Source: a virus (taxonomy: Duplodnaviria > Caudoviricetes). From it: a stretch of 41,477 nucleotides of DNA. The translations under genes were made by a program, and so were the position numbers. Every line of letters starts with the position of its first letter. Position 1 is the stretch's first letter. The stretch covers positions 1-41,477 of the IMG/VR virus record IMGVR_UViG_3300020016_000021. One strand, given 5' to 3'. A model generated the notes under the pieces. It was not told the origin of the DNA. It saw only the letters and a program-made list of their open reading frames with translations, and ran no database searches. This document shows positions 446-41,072 of this stretch, piece after piece.

Positions 446-1240
446 CTAGATGGGCTTGGGGATGTGGTTCTCGGCCGTCTGCAGGATGGTGTTGAGCTCG
501 CGGCCCTCGCGCACCGCGTTCCACGCCTTGATGAAGTAGGCGATCTGAACGAACGGGGGCACCTTCTTGAGGTTGGCCTGGTCCCGCATGAGCCGCTCGC
601 GCAGTGTCAGGACGGGGTCGCCGAGGTCCATGTTGGCGCCGGTTTCGATCCGGGCGAAGAACTCGGCCGCGTCGCCCTGATCGATCCTGTGGAACAGGTG
701 GTGAGCGATGCCGGTGGTGGTCGCGCTGGCGGGCCGGAAGTGGCCGTTGACGCGGGACCCGATCTCGGCCGACCGGCGCAGCGAGGGGTTGGCGTCCAGG
801 TGGGCGCGTAGCTCTCCGGGCGTGGGGGCCAGGTGGTTGCCGAACTTGTGGTTGCCGCTGTCCCACATCCATGTGCGCCGGGCGACCGATGCGAGGACGT
901 TGACGTTGATCTCGCCCCGGAGCTTCCAGGCGTCGGCCGTGGTGCGCTTGCGGCCGAGGTCCATGGTCTCCTGCGTGTCGTTGGGCAGGCCCTGGACGAC
1001 GAGCATGCTGACGGGGGTCTCGGCCTCGATGACCGCGCCGAGACGGTGCTGACCGTCCAGCAGCGTGCCGTCCTCGGCCCGCTTGATGGCTTCGCCGTTC
1101 ATGCGCCATTCGCCGTTGGCGATGGCCCGGGCCAGCTCGGTTACCCGGCGGGTGTTCAGGTTGCGGTTGCGCTCGTTCTCGGAGAGCCAGAGCTTGGCCA
1201 GCTCGGGAGTGACGTACTTGATCTCGGATGTGATGCTCAC
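446..1240 (-). CDS. ParB/Srx-like N-terminal domain protein
   Basis: VTPELAKLWL..N..NR..., LARAIANGEW..NGEAI, LLDGQHRL motifs; has its own promoter upstream. Confidence 0.75.
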   Translation of the reverse strand: MSITSEIKYVTPELAKLWLSENERNRNLNTRRVTELARAIANGEWRMNGEAIKRAEDGTLLDGQHRLGAVIEAETPVSMLVVQGLPNDTQETMDLGRKRTTADAWKLRGEINVNVLASVARRTWMWDSGNHKFGNHLAPTPGELRAHLDANPSLRRSAEIGSRVNGHFRPASATTTGIAHHLFHRIDQGDAAEFFARIETGANMDLGDPVLTLRERLMRDQANLKKVPPFVQIAYFIKAWNAVREGRELNTILQTAENHIPKPI

Positions 1241-4881: not shown

Positions 4882-7800
4882 ATGGAGATCACCGTTGCTC
4901 TCTCCGAGGAGCACTACTGTGAAGTCACCCTCGACTCGGCCATCTCGCCCGACGTCGCCATCTCACGCGGCTACCGCACCCTCACCGGGACCGGCGAAGA
5001 CCGGGACCTGCTGAACGAGCTCGGCTTCAAGCCGTACGTCTGGAACCGGGACGACGCCTATCCCGGCCTGCTCATCCCCATGCACGACGCGTCGGGCGCC
5101 GTGAACGGCCACCAGTTCAAGCCCGCGGTGCCCCGGACAGGCAAGCTCAAGCAGGACGGCACGTACGCGGTCGTCAAGTACGAGTCGCCCAAGGGCTCCC
5201 ACAACGTCATCGACGTGCCGGAGTACACCCGCAGCGTCCTTGCCGACACCTCGGTGCCCCTCTGGTTCACCGAGGGCATGAAGAAGACCGACGCGCTCGT
5301 CTCCCAGGGCCGCGCCGCCCTTGGCCTCACCGGGGTCTTCAACTGGAAGGACCGCGTCAACGGCATCGTCGGGGACTGGGAGGCCATTCCCCTCAAGGGC
5401 CGCCCCGCGCTCGTCTGCTTCGACGCGGACGCAGCCGCCAACCGGTTCGTGCAGCTGGCCATGGGCCGCCTGGGCAACTGGCTGAAGTCCAAGGGCGCCA
5501 CCACCGTCGGTTACGTGATCGTCCCCACCCACGTCGGGGAGCAGCCCGTCAAGGGCGTGGACGACTTCTTTGCCGCCGGGGGCACCCTCGAGGAGTTGGA
5601 GAAGGTCACCTCCACCACCCCGCCCGGCGCCTCGGAGAAGGACGCTGCGTTCACCGACGCCTTCCTTGTCGAGGATCTGGCCGACGCGCTCACCGGACAG
5701 TTCTGCTGGGCTGCGGGCTTGTCGTGGCTGCGCTGGAACGGGCAGGTCTGGAAAGCGGTTTCCGACGTCGAACCGCTGGAAGCCGTCCGCCTGTGGGCCT
5801 CTGCCCAGTTCGACGCGGTCTGCGACGAGCAGAAGCGGGACCGGTCCAAGCCCCTGGACGCCAAGATCTCCGGATGGCGCGCCGTCCTCGGCCGCGCCCG
5901 GTTGACATCCCTGCGCGACCTGTCCCGGGGCCTGCTCCAGCGGGACTCGGCCGAGTTCGACGGGGACCCGGACCTCCTCACGGTCGGCAATGGCACTGTG
6001 CATCTGCCGACTGGCAAGCTCCTGCCGTTCAACCCCGAGCACTGCATCACCAAGCAGGCCAGTGCCGACTACCGCGCAGACGCGCGCCACCCCAGCTGGG
6101 ACACGGCTCTGCGCGCGGTGCCCGAGGACATGCACGAGTGGTTCCAGGACCGCCTTGGGCAGTCCCTGACCGGCTACATGACCCCCGACCACATGATGGT
6201 GATCGCCCACGGCGGCGGCTCGAACGGCAAGAGCACCGTGATGGAGGTGGTCCGCAAGACTCTGGCCGACTACGCCGTACTGGTCTCCGACCGGGTGCTC
6301 ATGGCCAGCCCCGACGCGCACCCCACCGAGCTCATGGACTTCCGTGGCGCCCGGTACGCGCTGATGGAGGAGACCCCCGAGGCCCGCCACCTGAACGTGC
6401 AGCGCCTCAAGCAGACCGTGGGCACACCGACGATCAAGGCTCGCCGGATCCGCATGGACCCGGTGGAGTTCATCGCCTCTCACAGCCTGTTCATCAACAC
6501 CAACTACCGGCCGACCGTCACCGAGACCGACCACGGCACCTGGCGCCGCCTGTCGCTGATGCCTTGGCCGTTCACCTTCCGCAAGCCCGGACAGCCCCTC
6601 ACGGGCCCGTACGACCGCGTGGGCGATCCCGCGCTCGCGTACGCGGCCGGGGACGCGGCAGTGCGGTCGGCCGCGCTCGCATGGATGGTCGCGGGTGCGC
6701 GGGCCTGGTACGAGCGCGGGCGGATGATGCTGCCGGTGCCGGAGCGCGTGGAACGCGAGACGCGGGATTGGCGCGCGGAGACCGACCTCGTACTCGGCTT
6801 CACGGACGACATGCTCCGCTTCACCCCGGAAGCGTTCGTGCAGACGCAGGACATGCTCAAGGCGTTCAACGACTGGTCGGCCGACCGCGGTCACCGGCCG
6901 TGGAACGACCGCACGTTCGCCTCGAGGTTCGGCGCCCACGACGCGGTGCGCGCGGCCAAAGTCACGCAGGGCCGCTTCTCCGTCGGGGGGAAGCAGCAGA
7001 GGGGATGGATGGGTGTGGAGATCAAGACGAACGGCATTGACCCCTGGACGGGCGAGCGGGACGAACCCCCGGCGCCGGATCTGGCACCGAACGAGTTCAT
7101 GCACGAGGGCGACGTCTGGGAGATCACGGAGGTACCCCGCGAGGTTTCCCCGCTTGCGCCTGACGCGTGTGCTACGTGCTCCGACTACCGGTGCACCGGC
7201 TGTTCGGGCGACCCGGTCACGCTCGGCTTCGACCTCGAGACGGCCGACGCCGACAAGCTGTTCACCGGCGGTCACGAGGGGCCGTTCGTCCGGCTGCTGG
7301 GCCTGGTGGAGGACGGTACGGGCGGACCGTTCAAGGACGGCACCGCCATCGGCCGGTCCGCCGACGCACTCATCGGCTCGCTGGACTCCGCCGACGTCAT
7401 CTACGGGCACAACATCCTCGGCTTCGACCTGCTCGCCCTGGCCCACCACCACGGTGCCGACTACGACGCGCTGGCTGCGAAGGCCGTGGACACGCAGGTG
7501 CTGGCCAAGCTGATCGACCCGCCGCTGTCCAAGGGCATGCCGAACGGGTACTACGGCCTGGATCAGGTGGCGCAGCGGCTCGGCCACGAGGGCAAGACAG
7601 ACAACCTGCGGGACCTGGCCAAGCGCTACGGCGGGTACGACCGGATCCCGCTGGACTCCCGGGAGTATCAGGACTACCTGCGCGGCGACCTGGCTGCGAC
7701 CAGGGCCGTGTACGAGGGCCTGCGGATGCTGCGCATGGGCGCAGAGGGCAGCAGCCCGGACAACCGGACCATCGCCCACGCCGAGCGCGAGATGGAGATC

Positions 7801-9150
7801 GTGGCACTCCAGAACCGCATGACGCTCAACGGGTGGGCCGTAGATGACGTGCTCCTGCGCGAGCGGGTTGCGCACGAGGACGCGCAGCGAGCGGCCGCCG
7901 TGCAGACGCTGGCCGATGAGTACGGCATGCCGACGCACAAGCCGGACCGGTACAAGCTGCTGCCGAAGCGGGACTGGCAGGAGCACATGCGCGCCATGTC
8001 CATCACGGATGCCCGCGCGCTGCTGGTCAACGAGCCGCAGGCGGCTGTGGATCGGGGCATGGCCGAGCGGATCCCCGGCGAGCGGTACGACGCTCCGTGG
8101 GCCACCGACGTGGGCCGCGACGCCATCGAGCAGGCGTTCCGGGACGCGGGGGCGACCCACCTGCCCAGGACCAAGACAGGCGCCCTGGCGATGAGCTCCG
8201 ACGCGCTCGGTGACGAGCCCTGGTTCAACCCGGCCAAGGGCAAGTCGCAGCCCGGGCTGATGCAGCACTACGCGGGCAACGAGGCGATCGGCCGGGTGGC
8301 CGAGCTCGTGCTGCAGGCGACCGGGGCGCGGCGCAAATACGCCGAGCTGTCGAACTGGCTGACGGAGCACGGCCGCGTGCACGCATGGATCGGTGCCGCG
8401 CAGGGCAGCGGCCGGTGGGCGCACATCAAGCCGGGCATCTCCACCATGGGCAAGCGCGGCGCAGGCGCGGCCGAGCGCGACGTCATGGTGGCCGACCCGG
8501 GCCACGTCCTGATCACCTGCGACCTCTCGCAGGTGGACCTGCGGGCCATGGCGGGACTGTCCCAGGACGCGGCGTACATGGAAATCCTGCAGCCGGGCCG
8601 TGACGCGCACATGGAAATGGCAGGGGTGTACTTCGGGGTGCGCAACGCCGACACGCGGCAAAAGACGAAGGCGTTCAACCATGCGGGCAACTACGGGCAG
8701 GGCCCGAAGGCCGTCTCGGAGCGCACGGGTATCCCCCTGGCCAAGTGCTACGAGATCCGGGACGCGAAGGCCGAGGCATACCCCCGGCTGGCCGAGTACA
8801 TCGAGGAGATCCGGGAGGAGGCTGCGTCCGGCCGCCTGCTGGACAACGGGTTCGGGCGCCTGATGCGACCTGACCCCGAGCGGGCATACACCCAGGGCCC
8901 GGCCCTGATGGGCCAGGGCGCGGCCCGGGACATCATGTGCGAGTCGCTGCTGCGGCTGGTGCGGTCCTACCCGGGCGTGCGGCCGTACCTGCGGGCCATC
9001 GTTCACGACGAAGTGGTGCTGTCGGTCCCCGAGCAGGACGCGGACATGTGGCGGCTGAACCTGGAACAGGCGTTCACATGGGAGTGGCGCGGGGTTCCGA
9101 TCCTGTGCGACGTCTCCAAGGCGGCTTTCCGCTGGTCGGAGTGCAAGTGA
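4882..9150 (+). CDS. Fused TOPRIM (DUF3854-like) primase / D5-P4-type SF3 helicase / 3'-5' exonuclease / family A DNA polymerase
   Basis: TEGMKK, CFDAD, KGVDD (TOPRIM); GGGSNGKST (Walker A); FDLET, GHNILGFD, YLRGD (Exo I-III); DLSQVDLR, KAFNHAGNYG, IVHDE (Pol motifs A, B, C). Confidence 0.92.
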   Translation: MEITVALSEEHYCEVTLDSAISPDVAISRGYRTLTGTGEDRDLLNELGFKPYVWNRDDAYPGLLIPMHDASGAVNGHQFKPAVPRTGKLKQDGTYAVVKYESPKGSHNVIDVPEYTRSVLADTSVPLWFTEGMKKTDALVSQGRAALGLTGVFNWKDRVNGIVGDWEAIPLKGRPALVCFDADAAANRFVQLAMGRLGNWLKSKGATTVGYVIVPTHVGEQPVKGVDDFFAAGGTLEELEKVTSTTPPGASEKDAAFTDAFLVEDLADALTGQFCWAAGLSWLRWNGQVWKAVSDVEPLEAVRLWASAQFDAVCDEQKRDRSKPLDAKISGWRAVLGRARLTSLRDLSRGLLQRDSAEFDGDPDLLTVGNGTVHLPTGKLLPFNPEHCITKQASADYRADARHPSWDTALRAVPEDMHEWFQDRLGQSLTGYMTPDHMMVIAHGGGSNGKSTVMEVVRKTLADYAVLVSDRVLMASPDAHPTELMDFRGARYALMEETPEARHLNVQRLKQTVGTPTIKARRIRMDPVEFIASHSLFINTNYRPTVTETDHGTWRRLSLMPWPFTFRKPGQPLTGPYDRVGDPALAYAAGDAAVRSAALAWMVAGARAWYERGRMMLPVPERVERETRDWRAETDLVLGFTDDMLRFTPEAFVQTQDMLKAFNDWSADRGHRPWNDRTFASRFGAHDAVRAAKVTQGRFSVGGKQQRGWMGVEIKTNGIDPWTGERDEPPAPDLAPNEFMHEGDVWEITEVPREVSPLAPDACATCSDYRCTGCSGDPVTLGFDLETADADKLFTGGHEGPFVRLLGLVEDGTGGPFKDGTAIGRSADALIGSLDSADVIYGHNILGFDLLALAHHHGADYDALAAKAVDTQVLAKLIDPPLSKGMPNGYYGLDQVAQRLGHEGKTDNLRDLAKRYGGYDRIPLDSREYQDYLRGDLAATRAVYEGLRMLRMGAEGSSPDNRTIAHAEREMEIVALQNRMTLNGWAVDDVLLRERVAHEDAQRAAAVQTLADEYGMPTHKPDRYKLLPKRDWQEHMRAMSITDARALLVNEPQAAVDRGMAERIPGERYDAPWATDVGRDAIEQAFRDAGATHLPRTKTGALAMSSDALGDEPWFNPAKGKSQPGLMQHYAGNEAIGRVAELVLQATGARRKYAELSNWLTEHGRVHAWIGAAQGSGRWAHIKPGISTMGKRGAGAAERDVMVADPGHVLITCDLSQVDLRAMAGLSQDAAYMEILQPGRDAHMEMAGVYFGVRNADTRQKTKAFNHAGNYGQGPKAVSERTGIPLAKCYEIRDAKAEAYPRLAEYIEEIREEAASGRLLDNGFGRLMRPDPERAYTQGPALMGQGAARDIMCESLLRLVRSYPGVRPYLRAIVHDEVVLSVPEQDADMWRLNLEQAFTWEWRGVPILCDVSKAAFRWSECK

Positions 9151-13453: not shown

Positions 13454-13669
13454 CTACCGCAGCACGCCCGGCTGGTCCGGGTCCCCGGTGAACCGACCGG
13501 CCAGACCCTCTACGAGAGCCAGTACGGCGGCCGATCCGGCGACCGCAAGGGCGGCCGTCCAGTGAAAGGTCAGGACGTTGAACGGCTGGTCGGCAAGCAT
13601 CACCGCGAGCAGGCTCGCGAGGAACACGCCGAGCGTCTTGATCACTAGTCGTCTGGCGAAGTCCTTCAT
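13454..13669 (-). CDS. Holin (actinophage two-TM type)
   Basis: 71 aa; F..RLVIKTL, two TM helices, ..HW.AAL..AG.AA..A pattern. Confidence 0.7.
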   Translation of the reverse strand: MKDFARRLVIKTLGVFLASLLAVMLADQPFNVLTFHWTAALAVAGSAAVLALVEGLAGRFTGDPDQPGVLR

Positions 13670-36334: not shown

Positions 36335-36847
36335 TCAGCTCACCTTCCTGCACAGGAAGTAGTCGTTGTTGTCCTGGGCCAGCGTCACCAGCACGCCCGT
36401 GTAGCCCGCCGGGCATGCCTGCGCAGGCTCGCCCTGGTCACCTTGCGGTCCGGCCGGACCCTGGGGCCCTGTCGGGCCCGGTTCGCCTGACGGTCCAGGC
36501 GGGCCAGCCGGGCCGGGAACTCCCACTGAGCCCACAGGCCCCTGTACCCCATCCCGTCCGTCCGTCCCGTCTGTCCCGGGCGGGCCGCTCGGGCCCACGG
36601 GCCCCGGGGATCCGTCCGTGCCGTTCCGTCCGTCGACCCCATCGCGTCCGTCCTTGCCGTTCGTACCGGTGTCGCCCTTGGGTCCGGCGACCGGGACACC
36701 GCCGAGGGAGCGCACCTGCTGCGCGAGGGCGGTGCGGTCTTTCTCGGCGGTGTCGAGGCGCTCGGCGATGCCCTGTCCGTACGCGATGGCGTAGGCCACG
36801 GCGACGGACAGGGCGATGACCACGAGCCACCAGCGGAGCGCCTTCAT
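36335..36847 (-). CDS. Membrane-anchored collagen-like (Gly-X-Y) protein in the lysis cassette
   Basis: N-terminal TM, coiled coil LAQQVRSLG, about 25 G-X-Y triplets, C-terminal CPAGY...C. Confidence 0.8.
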
Positions 36848-37104
36848 GACTTCCCCAGTACGAGGTAAAGGATGATGCCCACGATGACAGGGGCCACCAC
36901 AGCCGTCCACACCCAGGTTTTCATCGCCTCGGCACGGGCCTTCTGGTCGGCGACTTCCTTGGCCACAGCGGCCAGCTGGAGTTCGGCGACTTTCTGGCTG
37001 GCCGCGTACTGCTCCTGTGTGACGTAACGGCTCATCTCGGAAAGGATCCGGGACACGTCGGACTGCAGGTCGCGCAGGAGCTCGGGGATCGTGGGTTCAT
37101 CCAT
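36844..37104 (-). CDS. Membrane protein (holin-like / lysis accessory)
   Basis: Coiled coil plus C-terminal TM; directly downstream of endolysin. Confidence 0.65.
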
Positions 37105-38518: not shown

Positions 38519-38581
38519 TCAGTGGCCGTGACCGGCGGGGACCCACCAGCCGCACTTTTCGCAGTAGATGTACTCGGTCAT
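38519..38581 (-). CDS. 20-aa CxxC...HxH micro-protein (MTEYIYCEKCGWWVPAGHGH)
   Basis: ATGA overlap with the upstream stop; its own stop abuts the next RBS. Confidence 0.55.
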   Translation of the reverse strand: MTEYIYCEKCGWWVPAGHGH

Positions 38582-38910
38582 TCCGTCCCTGCTTCCTTGT
38601 CGGTCCGGCTGAGCCATTCGCTCGGCCGGGTCACCACCCAGCGGTTCGGGTGGCTGGTGTCGCGCACTGCGCTGACCTGCACTTCTTCCTCGGGGCCCCT
38701 CTCGGGGACCGGTGGGGGAGCGGGGTTAGATGCAGGGGGCACGGGCTTGCGGGCGGCCCAGACGATCGCCCCCCAACCCACGATCCACAAGCCGAGGACG
38801 AACGCGGTCGGGGAGAGCGCCCACAGCCCGCAGGCGAGCCCGAGGACGGCCGCCGAGATGACGGCCGCCCCCGCGCAGCCGGAGTGCTCCTCCGGCTCGT
38901 CTACCTCCAC
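38578..38910 (-). CDS. Two-TM membrane protein (start uncertain)
   Basis: Hydrophobic hairpin followed by a Pro-rich linker. Confidence 0.6.
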   Translation of the reverse strand: MEVDEPEEHSGCAGAAVISAAVLGLACGLWALSPTAFVLGLWIVGWGAIVWAARKPVPPASNPAPPPVPERGPEEEVQVSAVRDTSHPNRWVVTRPSEWLSRTDKEAGTE

Positions 38911-39098
38911 CGGTAGGCCCCCAGGATCCTCCGGCGGATCTGCATCCGGTTCTTGATCTGGCGTTCTGTGGGCACGGTCCAGGAGTGCCATCCGATCCCG
39001 GCTCGCCATCGCTGGTAGTGCCCGCGCTCCGGGACCCCGCACTCCCTGCATGCGGACGGGGTCAGGGCGAACAGGTACTGACGGTGGTAGGCGTCCAT
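38901..39098 (-). CDS. 65-aa Zn-binding hypothetical protein
   Basis: PSACRECG..ERGH.QRW...GWH.W..PT..QIK.RM; TGATG coupling. Confidence 0.65.
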   Translation of the reverse strand: MDAYHRQYLFALTPSACRECGVPERGHYQRWRAGIGWHSWTVPTERQIKNRMQIRRRILGAYRWR

Positions 39099-39616
39099 CA
39101 CAGTGCCCCCGTCAGCCAGGCGCCCGAGATGTTCACGGCCGACGCCAGGGGGACTGCGACCGTCGCCGCAACCCCGGCCGAGCAGCTCATCAGGATGCCG
39201 GAGATCAGTCCCCGGATCTTCGACGGACTCGTGCCGCCCTTCCGGACCCGGATGACCGTCACCAAGATCAGGAGACCGGCCATGAAGATTCCTCCGGGGG
39301 TCAGGGCCACGTCGGCAATGCGGGACGCCTCTTGGCGCTGACCCCCCAGCCCTGCCACGTAGGCGGCATCTCCGAGCCAGCCCGCACCCCAGATGAACCA
39401 ACCGGTGGCCAGGCCCACCAGGCCACCCACGCAGAGCGTCAGAACGGCGCCAACACACCAGGTCCACAGGAAGGATCCGAGGCTGGCAGCCCACTTGGTC
39501 GGGTGCTTGCGCAGGGCCGTCAGGCCCGGGTACCAGTCAGCCAGTTCGATCACCAGGCAGGCGAACCCGATGAAGAGGGCGCCGTAGCTGAAGTACTCGG
39601 GGGCGGTCACGTTCAC
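39098..39616 (-). CDS. Multi-pass membrane protein
   Basis: GTG 39616 with GGAGG RBS; 4-5 hydrophobic segments. Confidence 0.7.
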   Translation of the reverse strand: MNVTAPEYFSYGALFIGFACLVIELADWYPGLTALRKHPTKWAASLGSFLWTWCVGAVLTLCVGGLVGLATGWFIWGAGWLGDAAYVAGLGGQRQEASRIADVALTPGGIFMAGLLILVTVIRVRKGGTSPSKIRGLISGILMSCSAGVAATVAVPLASAVNISGAWLTGAL

Positions 39617-40515
39617 GACTCCTCCTTCACGTACTTCAGGAGCCTCTCGGCCCGGGCCTGACCGACTTTGGCGTAGTCCTTGAGGCCGCGCACGGTCGGC
39701 TTGACTGCGTTGGCGACGTACTCGTACGCGACGGGCAGGTACTCGTCGTCCCCGAGGTTCAGGTGCACCGCACCCGCGTCCTCGGGTACGTAGTCGAGTG
39801 CACTGGCGCACCCGCACCCGTCCGGGCACTCGGGCGAGTGCACGGTGTACCCCGCCTCGAGTACGTCGTCCTGGGGGGCGGGTACAACCCGCAGGTACGG
39901 GACAGGTGCGTCGGGGTCGCCGTACTCGGCCGCGCTCCACTCCTCGGGTACGTACTCGGGCGCCTTCACCGCACCCGCGTACTGCACCTGCGTACCAGGT
40001 ACGTCCTCGGGCCCCGTACCCGCCTCCAGACCCCACAGGAGCTCTTGGCGGGTACGGGCGTACTTCAACGAGTACACCCGCCACACGATCAGGGGTGCGA
40101 CTGCACCCACGGCCGCGATAACCGGCCACTCGACTCGGAGTACACCGCCTGCGATCAGGTGCGAGGCGACGTTGGCCGCGACCATGGCGAGTACGGCGAC
40201 GAACACATCCCGGCGCTGCTGGAGTGCACGGACCACGTACAGGTCAAGCGCACCGGGTACAGCGAGTGCGACGTACTCGTTGAAGTGCGCGGCGGTCGCC
40301 AAGGTGTACTCGGCGTGAGCTGTGGAGACGAGTGCGCACCCGAGTGCACCCCACAGGATCCAGTCTCTGCGCCCGGGTGCGGGCACATACGTACTCGCAC
40401 CCGGGGTACGCCGCAGCCATGCGGGTACGAGCTTCATGAGTGCACCCGGGTGCACGGGCAGGTGCTCTTGCCCATCTGAGCGGTGCACCCGGTCTTCTCG
40501 TTCCAGTGCACCTGC
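39590..40515. repeat. Dense array of short GRGTRC / GYACYC motifs within and around the Spd-like gene
   Basis: Dozens of GAGTAC, GGGTAC, GAGTGC, GGGTGC, GTACTC, GCACCC, GTGCAC, e.g. GAGTGCGCACCCGAGTGCACCC at 40330 and GAGTGCACCCGGGTGCAC at 40438. Confidence 0.75.
39613..40437 (-). CDS. Spd/DUF2637-like membrane protein with C-terminal HTH-like tail
   Basis: 4 TM segments (STAHAEYTLA..A, ALAVPGALDLY, AMVAANVASH, AVGAVAPL), acidic linker, PTVRGLK...KVGQARAERL; resembles Streptomyces plasmid spread proteins. Confidence 0.6.
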   Translation of the reverse strand: MKLVPAWLRRTPGASTYVPAPGRRDWILWGALGCALVSTAHAEYTLATAAHFNEYVALAVPGALDLYVVRALQQRRDVFVAVLAMVAANVASHLIAGGVLRVEWPVIAAVGAVAPLIVWRVYSLKYARTRQELLWGLEAGTGPEDVPGTQVQYAGAVKAPEYVPEEWSAAEYGDPDAPVPYLRVVPAPQDDVLEAGYTVHSPECPDGCGCASALDYVPEDAGAVHLNLGDDEYLPVAYEYVANAVKPTVRGLKDYAKVGQARAERLLKYVKEES

Positions 40516-41072
40516 CATACATGCCCGCACGAGGTGCAGTAGACCGGGTCGGCTGCGAACAGCTCGTCGTCCCACGTGGGCTGCGGGTGCTCCCTGGCGG
40601 GTTCGGGCATGGATGCTGCGATGGCCGCGAGGGCGTCCTTGAAGCCTTCGGTGAACCTGGCGAAGCTCTCGAGCGGGTTGCGGATGGGGAGTGGCGGCCG
40701 GGGGTCCTCAGGGAACCCGACGTCCTTGGGCTCAGGGTCGGCCGCGCACTCGCACTCGCGGAGGTGGGCGCAGGCTTCCGGCGACACGTCCACGTACTTC
40801 GCCTGGGGCGCCTGGTGGAGCGCCATGATCTCGGCGACCTGAGCGGACACCATGGCCCGTACGTCGCCGGGCGTCATCGGTGCGGGGGTCGGCTGGACGT
40901 TGGGGTACAGCCACTCGCCGAGAACTTCGTGCAGTCGGATCACGGTCTCGCGGTACGTGCTGACCTCGGCGTACCCGTCGCTGTCCCGCCCACGGAAGAT
41001 CAGGTGATCACCGTGAACCCTGATCTGCAGGCGGTCTCCGTCTCCATCGGTGTGACGGAAGATCTCGGTCAT
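40434..41072 (-). CDS. Hypothetical protein with C-terminal Cys/His cluster
   Basis: 212 aa; C.SCGH....H.....C......CPC. Confidence 0.7.
   Translation of the reverse strand: MTEIFRHTDGDGDRLQIRVHGDHLIFRGRDSDGYAEVSTYRETVIRLHEVLGEWLYPNVQPTPAPMTPGDVRAMVSAQVAEIMALHQAPQAKYVDVSPEACAHLRECECAADPEPKDVGFPEDPRPPLPIRNPLESFARFTEGFKDALAAIAASMPEPAREHPQPTWDDELFAADPVYCTSCGHVWQVHWNEKTGCTAQMGKSTCPCTRVHS

Follow-up and report, generated by a model that had tools for sequence, protein, structure and literature searches.

Why should a phage gene for a membrane protein be crowded with copies of one short DNA word, and what might read them? The question is raised by P0004, the anchor gene of this study (39613-40437, minus strand, 274 amino acids), which lies in a stretch of 41,477 bases (hereafter the window) that constitutes a whole virus record, rated 100% complete, with 67.7% G+C and genes for terminase, portal, capsid, tail, tape-measure, endolysin and holin. 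We infer a Streptomyces host, since close relatives occur at five genome loci, of which four are in Streptomyces assemblies, and eight of 12 plasmid matches come from Streptomyces. One relative, L020, lies on a 5.5-kb contig of a Nocardioides assembly, yet its gene is closely similar to L018/L019 from Streptomyces, which points to either contamination or a wider host range. Two contigs (L016/L017 and L166/L167) carry the anchor gene twice, approximately 39.5 kb apart, in the manner of tandem phage genomes. Elsewhere, the window encodes a single 1422-residue fusion of a primase/helicase (DUF3854, D5_N) with a family A DNA polymerase (4882-9150, plus strand), a second holin-like gene (13454-13669) and a collagen-repeat protein with an N-terminal hydrophobic stretch, which comes after the endolysin and holin genes (36335-36910, minus strand).

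The preliminary description of this locus had noted that GRGTRC dominates the anchor gene together with its 5' flank and fades outside about 39.6-40.5 kb. Counting bears this out: positions 39590-40490 hold 42 sites (46.6/kb), whereas the remaining sequence of the window has 122, or 3.0/kb (Poisson p 8e-35), and in 500-bp bins there are two peaks, with 19 sites (bin at 39501) and 25 sites (bin at 40001), whilst every other bin holds at most five. The array itself (39593..40490, both orientations) reaches the 3' end of the upstream gene; five further sites were counted in 40438-40600, four in 39098-39612 and one in 38578-38970. The full word is CGRGTRCR, with the leading C present in 80% and the last R in 95% of 41 window sites, and it occurs 31 times in the array (34/kb versus 0.96/kb). 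The comparison with codon-preserving shuffles, for which the preliminary description had called, showed an excess under each null applied to the anchor gene: compared to 37 observed sites, fixing the protein and drawing on phage codon usage gave 9.1+/-2.0, permuting the gene's own synonymous codons 14.9+/-2.5 and shuffling codon order 6.2+/-2.4, with 37 reached by none of 5000 shuffles whichever null was used. Amino acid composition as the cause of the site density is ruled out by the shuffles in which the protein was held fixed, and the array is under selection at the level of the DNA: its sites draw on codons that are rare in this phage, namely GTA for 9 of 36 valines (versus 5%), GCA for 12 of 44 alanines (versus 10%) and GGT for 11 of 21 glycines (versus 13%). 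Within the gene 18 sites point forward and 19 in reverse, occupying five of the six frame/strand classes. A directional track of the clt/KOPS type is a poor fit, the sites running both ways and the motor being absent.

Such words could exist without any protein that binds them, as elements of mRNA structure or as products of repeat-like linker evolution inherited along with the adjacent HTH. The anchor-gene mRNA does fold more strongly than its own-codon null (z -2.65, matched by 1 of 120 shuffles; five control genes, -0.15 to -0.74), and in close relatives the sites are most often spaced so as to form an overlapped palindrome, GRGTGCACYC. Against this stand arrays in other members of the family that are strand-biased and so cannot pair (CGGWAC 204/59, CGGAAR 37/3, VWB 2/19). 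Taken with the comparative evidence below, this leaves the explanation without binding a very slight probability.

The protein offers a candidate reader. P0004 gathered 220 homologs in our search and 467 clusters at 50% identity (E<=0.001). An AlphaFold model built with 75 homologs places four helices in residues 26-126 (40060..40362, minus strand), preceded by an N-tail of 25 residues and followed by a low-confidence, Pro/Glu-rich linker, and three helices in residues 230-273 (39619..39750, minus strand) with pLDDT ~98. The four transmembrane helices proposed earlier are thus recovered as helices of the predicted membrane domain, but only two of them (78-96 and 106-124) exceed a hydropathy of 1.4; a structure search with this domain returned generic helical bundles as its only matches. 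The HTH-like tail that had been proposed is better defined: six of the seven PDB matches of the family profile are FtsK gamma domains (best E 0.0016), and the modelled tail superposes on 5dcf (Z 6.0, rmsd 1.1 Å, 44 residues) and 2ve8 (Z 5.7, rmsd 1.3 Å, 46 residues), where a Z of about 6 is modest and the domain short. PF09397 is matched weakly by 12 of 75 family members, whilst P0004 itself gave no match to Pfam or PHROG and, in Foldseek, none to PDB or BFVD at E<=0.001. The model and these comparisons support a DNA-binding type of fold for the tail. Residues G259-Q260 align with the start of helix 3 of FtsK gamma, to which TraB owes its specificity according to work cited in PMC3583192. With FtsK gamma/KOPS and TraB/TRS (clt), P0004 thus has in common the three-helix fold, an 8-bp word and a variable residue in helix 3; unlike FtsK and TraB, it has no ATPase motor and ends after helix 3, and its sites lie in both orientations inside its own gene, although some other classes of the family are strand-biased.

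If the tail reads the array, a different recognition helix should go with a different word, and this is what the relatives display. Among 19 close loci (including two identical copies), 18 carry 35-60 sites/kb in the gene compared to 2.6-6.5 outside; only L013 departs from this, its GQx being replaced by GWP and its word being CGGGAGC. Array density is kept whilst site positions turn over: depending on the region, the window sites that keep their position in eight homologs range from 2 of 17 to 14 of 18, and about half of the window's sites are placed elsewhere in homologs. Nine plasmid and phage matches have each their own word, including CGGAAGAG (pMLP1), GCGGAAA, GTCTCA, CTCTCA and CGGTAC. 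Helix classes and words were fixed on 90 non-redundant genes (197 domain matches, 180 whole genes), the words being picked after seeing those data. In the Q class (n=40) GRRTRC was enriched at least fourfold in 34 genes (median 6.5x), and the own-codon null was beaten (p<0.01) in 39 of 40. The class word was likewise enriched in all eight T genes (GRRCAC, median 11x), all three W/G/GN genes (GRGARC), all 14 SDxYG genes (CGGWAC, median 14x), all four SRATA genes (TGAGAS, median 53x) and both DRT genes (CGGAAR, median 16x), and in each of these classes every gene beat the own-codon null (p<0.01). In case of LSRR (GGTSAC) enrichment was found in five of seven genes, with that null beaten in only one of seven, and nine genes of an RSP class are without a class word. 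Enrichment of off-class words was mostly ~1x, with a maximum of 4.2x (GRRCAC in the W/G/GN class). The rules were then applied, as fixed beforehand, to 70 more loci (65 whole genes, 15 redundant and 50 new): for 17 of the 19 new genes that could be classed, the predicted word was the best of seven (Q 8/8, LSRR 4/4, SRATA 3/3, SDxYG 2/2, T 0/2), and both T-class misses seem to come from a pattern match that lay outside the helix. The other 31 held-out genes yielded new pairs, including CGCTCA, GTTGCA, CCGTAC, CCGGTA, GCTTCC and CGGACA.

A restriction or host-protein site as the main cause of the arrays is rejected, since elements that all belong to Streptomyces differ in their word according to their own helix. 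Common descent deserves closer attention. When the tree is built from the membrane domain only, the helix classes are intermingled, and for Q/GRRTRC six of six independent pairs go in the same direction (p 0.031); SRATA and LSRR pairs were too few for such a test. Across 59 gamma-like tails the residue at position 260 goes with base 4 of the word (all 48 Q tails have T, eight of nine T tails have C, and W and G tails have A), L171 being the exception with a T residue and an A in its word; the Gln260 codon of the window lies at 39658-39660 (minus strand). However, this residue changes only three times on the tree, which speaks for the explanation without binding, and part of the match between helix and word is co-inheritance, because the linker lies next to the HTH and the two can travel as a unit. 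Two observations go beyond that: the word enters the conserved membrane-coding DNA in its own class only (GRRTRC, 26.7/kb in Q genes compared to 2.8-8.5 in others), and a match of one residue to one base has no reason under RNA structure. The simplest account is that P0004 binds the word, since the latter changes with the helix and is dense despite its codon cost; binding of P0004 to its own gene is likely, with strong, if indirect, support from the co-variation of word and recognition helix in the sequences. The third helix of the tail would then read the word and residue 260 its base 4, for which we judge the chances to be good.

Binding of this kind could serve autoregulation, with P0004 coating its gene and repressing its own operon as a membrane-bound transcription factor, and some Spd proteins may require tight expression control. 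In Q genes the sites do reach the 5' flank (17.4/kb upstream), but they peak in the linker-coding part (44.8/kb), and some 40 sites are far more than an operator needs; furthermore, upstream sites are almost absent in the other classes, and the VWB array extends downstream of its gene. We therefore regard autoregulation as improbable.

The preliminary description had also placed P0004 with the Spd proteins of Streptomyces conjugative plasmids. Here synteny with VWB and a lead from the ESM Atlas, whose nearest named clusters are DUF2637/SpdB_N (0.76-0.80, a lead only), favour the kinship, whilst the curated thresholds for DUF2637/SpdB2 are not reached: P0004 gave no match to PF10935 (DUF2637) at E<=0.1, DUF2637 is absent from the families listed for 75 family members, and the relative L023 scores 18.9 bits against a cut-off of 22.8. 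The SpdB2 proteins of pJV1 and pSG5 likewise miss this cut-off, which indicates that the PF10935 model is narrow. By profile comparison the membrane domain matches DUF2637 with an hhalign E of 0.015, below significance; the family HMM finds one pSG5-type SpdB2 at 10.5 bits, and phiC31 gp25 ranks fifth in the BFVD search (E 1.2). In architecture, SpdB2/DUF2637 proteins (pSVH1, pSG5, pJV1, pSN22, VWB gp24, phiC31 gp25) share the predicted four-helix membrane domain and HTH-like tail; their genes likewise belong to operons with other small membrane proteins, carried by mobile elements of Streptomyces, and in VWB the gene following the DUF2637 gene is of the same family as the gene following P0004. 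Differences are the missing Pfam DUF2637 match, a window without TraB and, compared to pSVH1 SpdB2 (coiled coil, residues 1-99), the lack of an N-terminal coiled coil; plasmid relatives of P0004 have long Ala/Glu-rich N-termini. From architecture, synteny and weak scores we thus consider it plausible that P0004 is SpdB2-like. DUF2637 itself has at least one match above the cut-off in each of 151 Streptomycetaceae genomes.

Arrays of own words occur in several of these named elements. VWB gp24 (DUF2637 E 1e-35), with an IGQKKA helix at its end, holds 21 copies of the window's word compared to 7.3 expected; pJV1 spdB2 carries GTGAGC (16 versus 3.9), pSN22 has the pJV1 word, pWTY27 carries CGCGAA (16 versus 5.2), and phiC31 gp25 has a weaker array of CTGAGC (9 versus 3.7, 3/1000 shuffles). 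The pSG5 gene is borderline (11 versus 4.6; 2/1000), and no array was found in pSVH1 spdB2, where 252/1000 shuffles reach its count, nor in OnionKnight gp57, pFP11 and two other plasmid spdB2-type genes. In VWB, 20 more GRGTRC sites lie downstream of gp24 (L035:17750-18250), where the record places the 5' part of gp25, apparently in error. The spdB2-type gene of pSN22 (L278:4001-5084) is apparently frameshifted in its record compared to pJV1 and still holds the CGTGAGC array. Over 140 non-redundant relatives from phages, plasmids and chromosomes, the top 6-mer score is at least 20 in 79 family genes and below 20 in 61, compared to 3 of 60 canonical DUF2637 genes and 3 of 164 flank windows; 57 of the 60 canonical genes are thus without a strong array. 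L275 (CGAAGC, 30 copies) and L255 (CGCATC, 10) are canonical DUF2637 genes with short HTH tails and own words, unlike most. We found no published description of arrays in spdB2-type genes; most subscription papers lay outside the search and may mention repeats.

P0004 does not stand alone. Open reading frames had been reported at 39613-40437, 39098-39616 and 38578-38910, and all three were recovered, the latter two with hydrophobic segments: P0002 (phrog_16379; 39098..39616, minus strand, 172 amino acids) has four of these and P0003 (38578..38991, minus strand), whose start is uncertain with the frame open to 39051, has two. Upstream lies a gene of 212 amino acids (40434..41072, minus strand) with motif copies at its 3' end, the stop of which overlaps the anchor's ATG, and genes at the locus are joined by stop/start overlaps (ATGA and GTGA). 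These neighbours are conserved: a P0002 relative is found at 47 of 140 loci, in 46 of the 47 directly downstream (<=600 bases), P0003 lies near 31 of 140, and the 212-residue gene holds the same upstream place in 21 loci. P0002 is related to the C-terminal part of VWB gp25 and to OnionKnight gp59, and P0003 to OnionKnight gp60. Against the annotated genes of pIJ101, pSG5 and pJV1 the P0002 and P0003 profiles found no convincing relative, the best P0003 match being a 66-residue pIJ101 ORF (E 0.005) of biased composition. A complex prediction for the P0004 membrane domain with P0002 scored 0.00, gave no verdict and carries no weight either way.

The earlier observation that no TraB/FtsK translocase is present extends to the entire record: profile searches with FtsK/TraB (PF01580) and FtsK/SpoIIIE gave no match anywhere in the window. 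The P0002-type neighbour and TraB/FtsK moreover appear to exclude each other: the 72 loci with 3.5 kb of flank to either side include 30 with the former, 13 with the latter and none with both, compared to 5.4 expected (p 3.6e-4, uncorrected for kinship). Tyrosine integrase, resolvase and ParA (PF13614) models likewise found no match in the window; as to ParABS, its only ParB-like sign is a weak PHROG match (E 6.6e-4) of the phrog_5931 protein at 446-1240 (minus strand). Of 17 virus records searched, the 13 that make up the two clades nearest to the window are without an FtsK, tyrosine-integrase or serine-recombinase match, and the other four have one or two of these.

What, then, would the binding be for? 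On the reading that we hold to have an even chance of being right, the anchor gene encodes a membrane protein whose tail grips the ~40 CGRGTRCR copies as docking sites, clamping the phage genome to the membrane. Many P0004 molecules on the array would effect this at one locus, and P0004 may enter the membrane whilst being made and so capture the gene from which it came, a step that we consider probable, if less so than the reading of base 4. Such capture in cis would favour the phage's own genome over others, and would in that way explain both the location of the sites in the gene and their divergence between elements. Together with the two downstream membrane proteins, P0004 could form a TraB-independent Spd-type device at cross-walls, to which we give somewhat less than even chances; this device would pass phage DNA to neighbouring hyphal compartments before lysis. 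By analogy with Spd systems, a role in mycelial spread is possible. In PMC4447253, loss of spdB2 abolishes pSVH1 spreading, the SpdB2 homologs of actinophages are suggested to aid spread, and pSVH1 SpdB2 is reported to form pores in bilayers, to bind peptidoglycan, to oligomerise and to bind DNA non-specifically. Spreading of pSVH1 does not need an array, since its spdB2 has none and its SpdB2 binds DNA without specificity. Gbn was set aside as not relevant, as SpdB2 appears in the passages of PMC9239103 only as an up-regulated gene.

Instead, the same binding could help to copy replicating or plasmid-like phage DNA, or to pass it on to branches and spores, by anchoring it at the membrane or at the growing tip, with no wall being crossed. 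The missing integrase, resolvase and ParA matches suit such a role, as do the absence of tyrosine integrase and serine recombinase from all 13 close phage records and the presence of close copies on Streptomyces assembly contigs. In Bacillus, Noc with NBS and RacA with ram each pair many short sites with a protein that recognises them and fixes the DNA at the membrane or pole; unlike the window, these systems are chromosomal, with sites over hundreds of kb and no integral four-helix domain. The phi29 protein p16.7 is sequence-non-specific. According to PMC4446434, p16.7 and AlpA/alpS of prophage CGP3 are both phage-encoded and bring phage DNA to the membrane, and the alpS repeats are concentrated at their own operon; AlpA differs in being an adaptor to an actin filament and in binding the promoter. 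The preliminary description had invoked Spd proteins that bind repeats in their own locus. The precedent holds in so far as SpdA2 of pIJ101 binds the sps repeats inside its own coding region, as evidenced by EMSA, but this is a different protein that, within the accessible text of PMC4170104, acts on stability and not on spreading, a function that itself favours an inheritance anchor. In that text SpdA2 is not described as a membrane protein, no gene of the pIJ101 record used here bears its name, and sps is a 12-bp palindrome with 2-3 conserved copies, compared to ~40 non-palindromic 8-bp sites in the window whose word changes with the protein. An anchor for replication or inheritance would nevertheless leave two extra conserved membrane genes and their exclusion of TraB unexplained, and the Spd genes of pSVH1 function in spreading (PMC4447253); we consider it unlikely.

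A third use of the binding would be exclusion or growth arrest, with P0004 trapping or sensing incoming DNA with the same array and thereby blocking kin phages or arresting the compartment, comparable to pock formation. The fast divergence of helix and word resembles self/non-self coding, and pores of the kind reported for SpdB2 (PMC4447253) could serve this end, but resident exclusion would benefit apparently non-integrating phages less, and the sites restrict codon choice in the phage itself, a cost that is easier to square with use in cis. The probability of this explanation is accordingly small.

Clamping of the genome by its own membrane protein would bear on an old question, namely how Spd proteins cross Streptomyces cross-walls and choose their own element, and the arrays give a candidate cis site in the classical laboratory elements pJV1, pSN22, pWTY27, VWB and phiC31. 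From the arrays it would further seem that phages with neither integrase nor TraB place or spread their DNA within the mycelium. More than 12 natural pairs of helix and word amount to a ready-made recognition code for a domain of 45 residues, in which coding DNA and protein sequence have been bent by selection for predicted binding sites. Self-addressed membrane anchors may even be common to actinomycete phages and plasmids, each with a private barcode of 6-8 bp that is re-tuned with its helix; in non-integrating phages with the two partner membrane proteins these would make up a TraB-free gate through which DNA crosses cross-walls without virions, a generalisation that we offer as tentative and rather doubtful.
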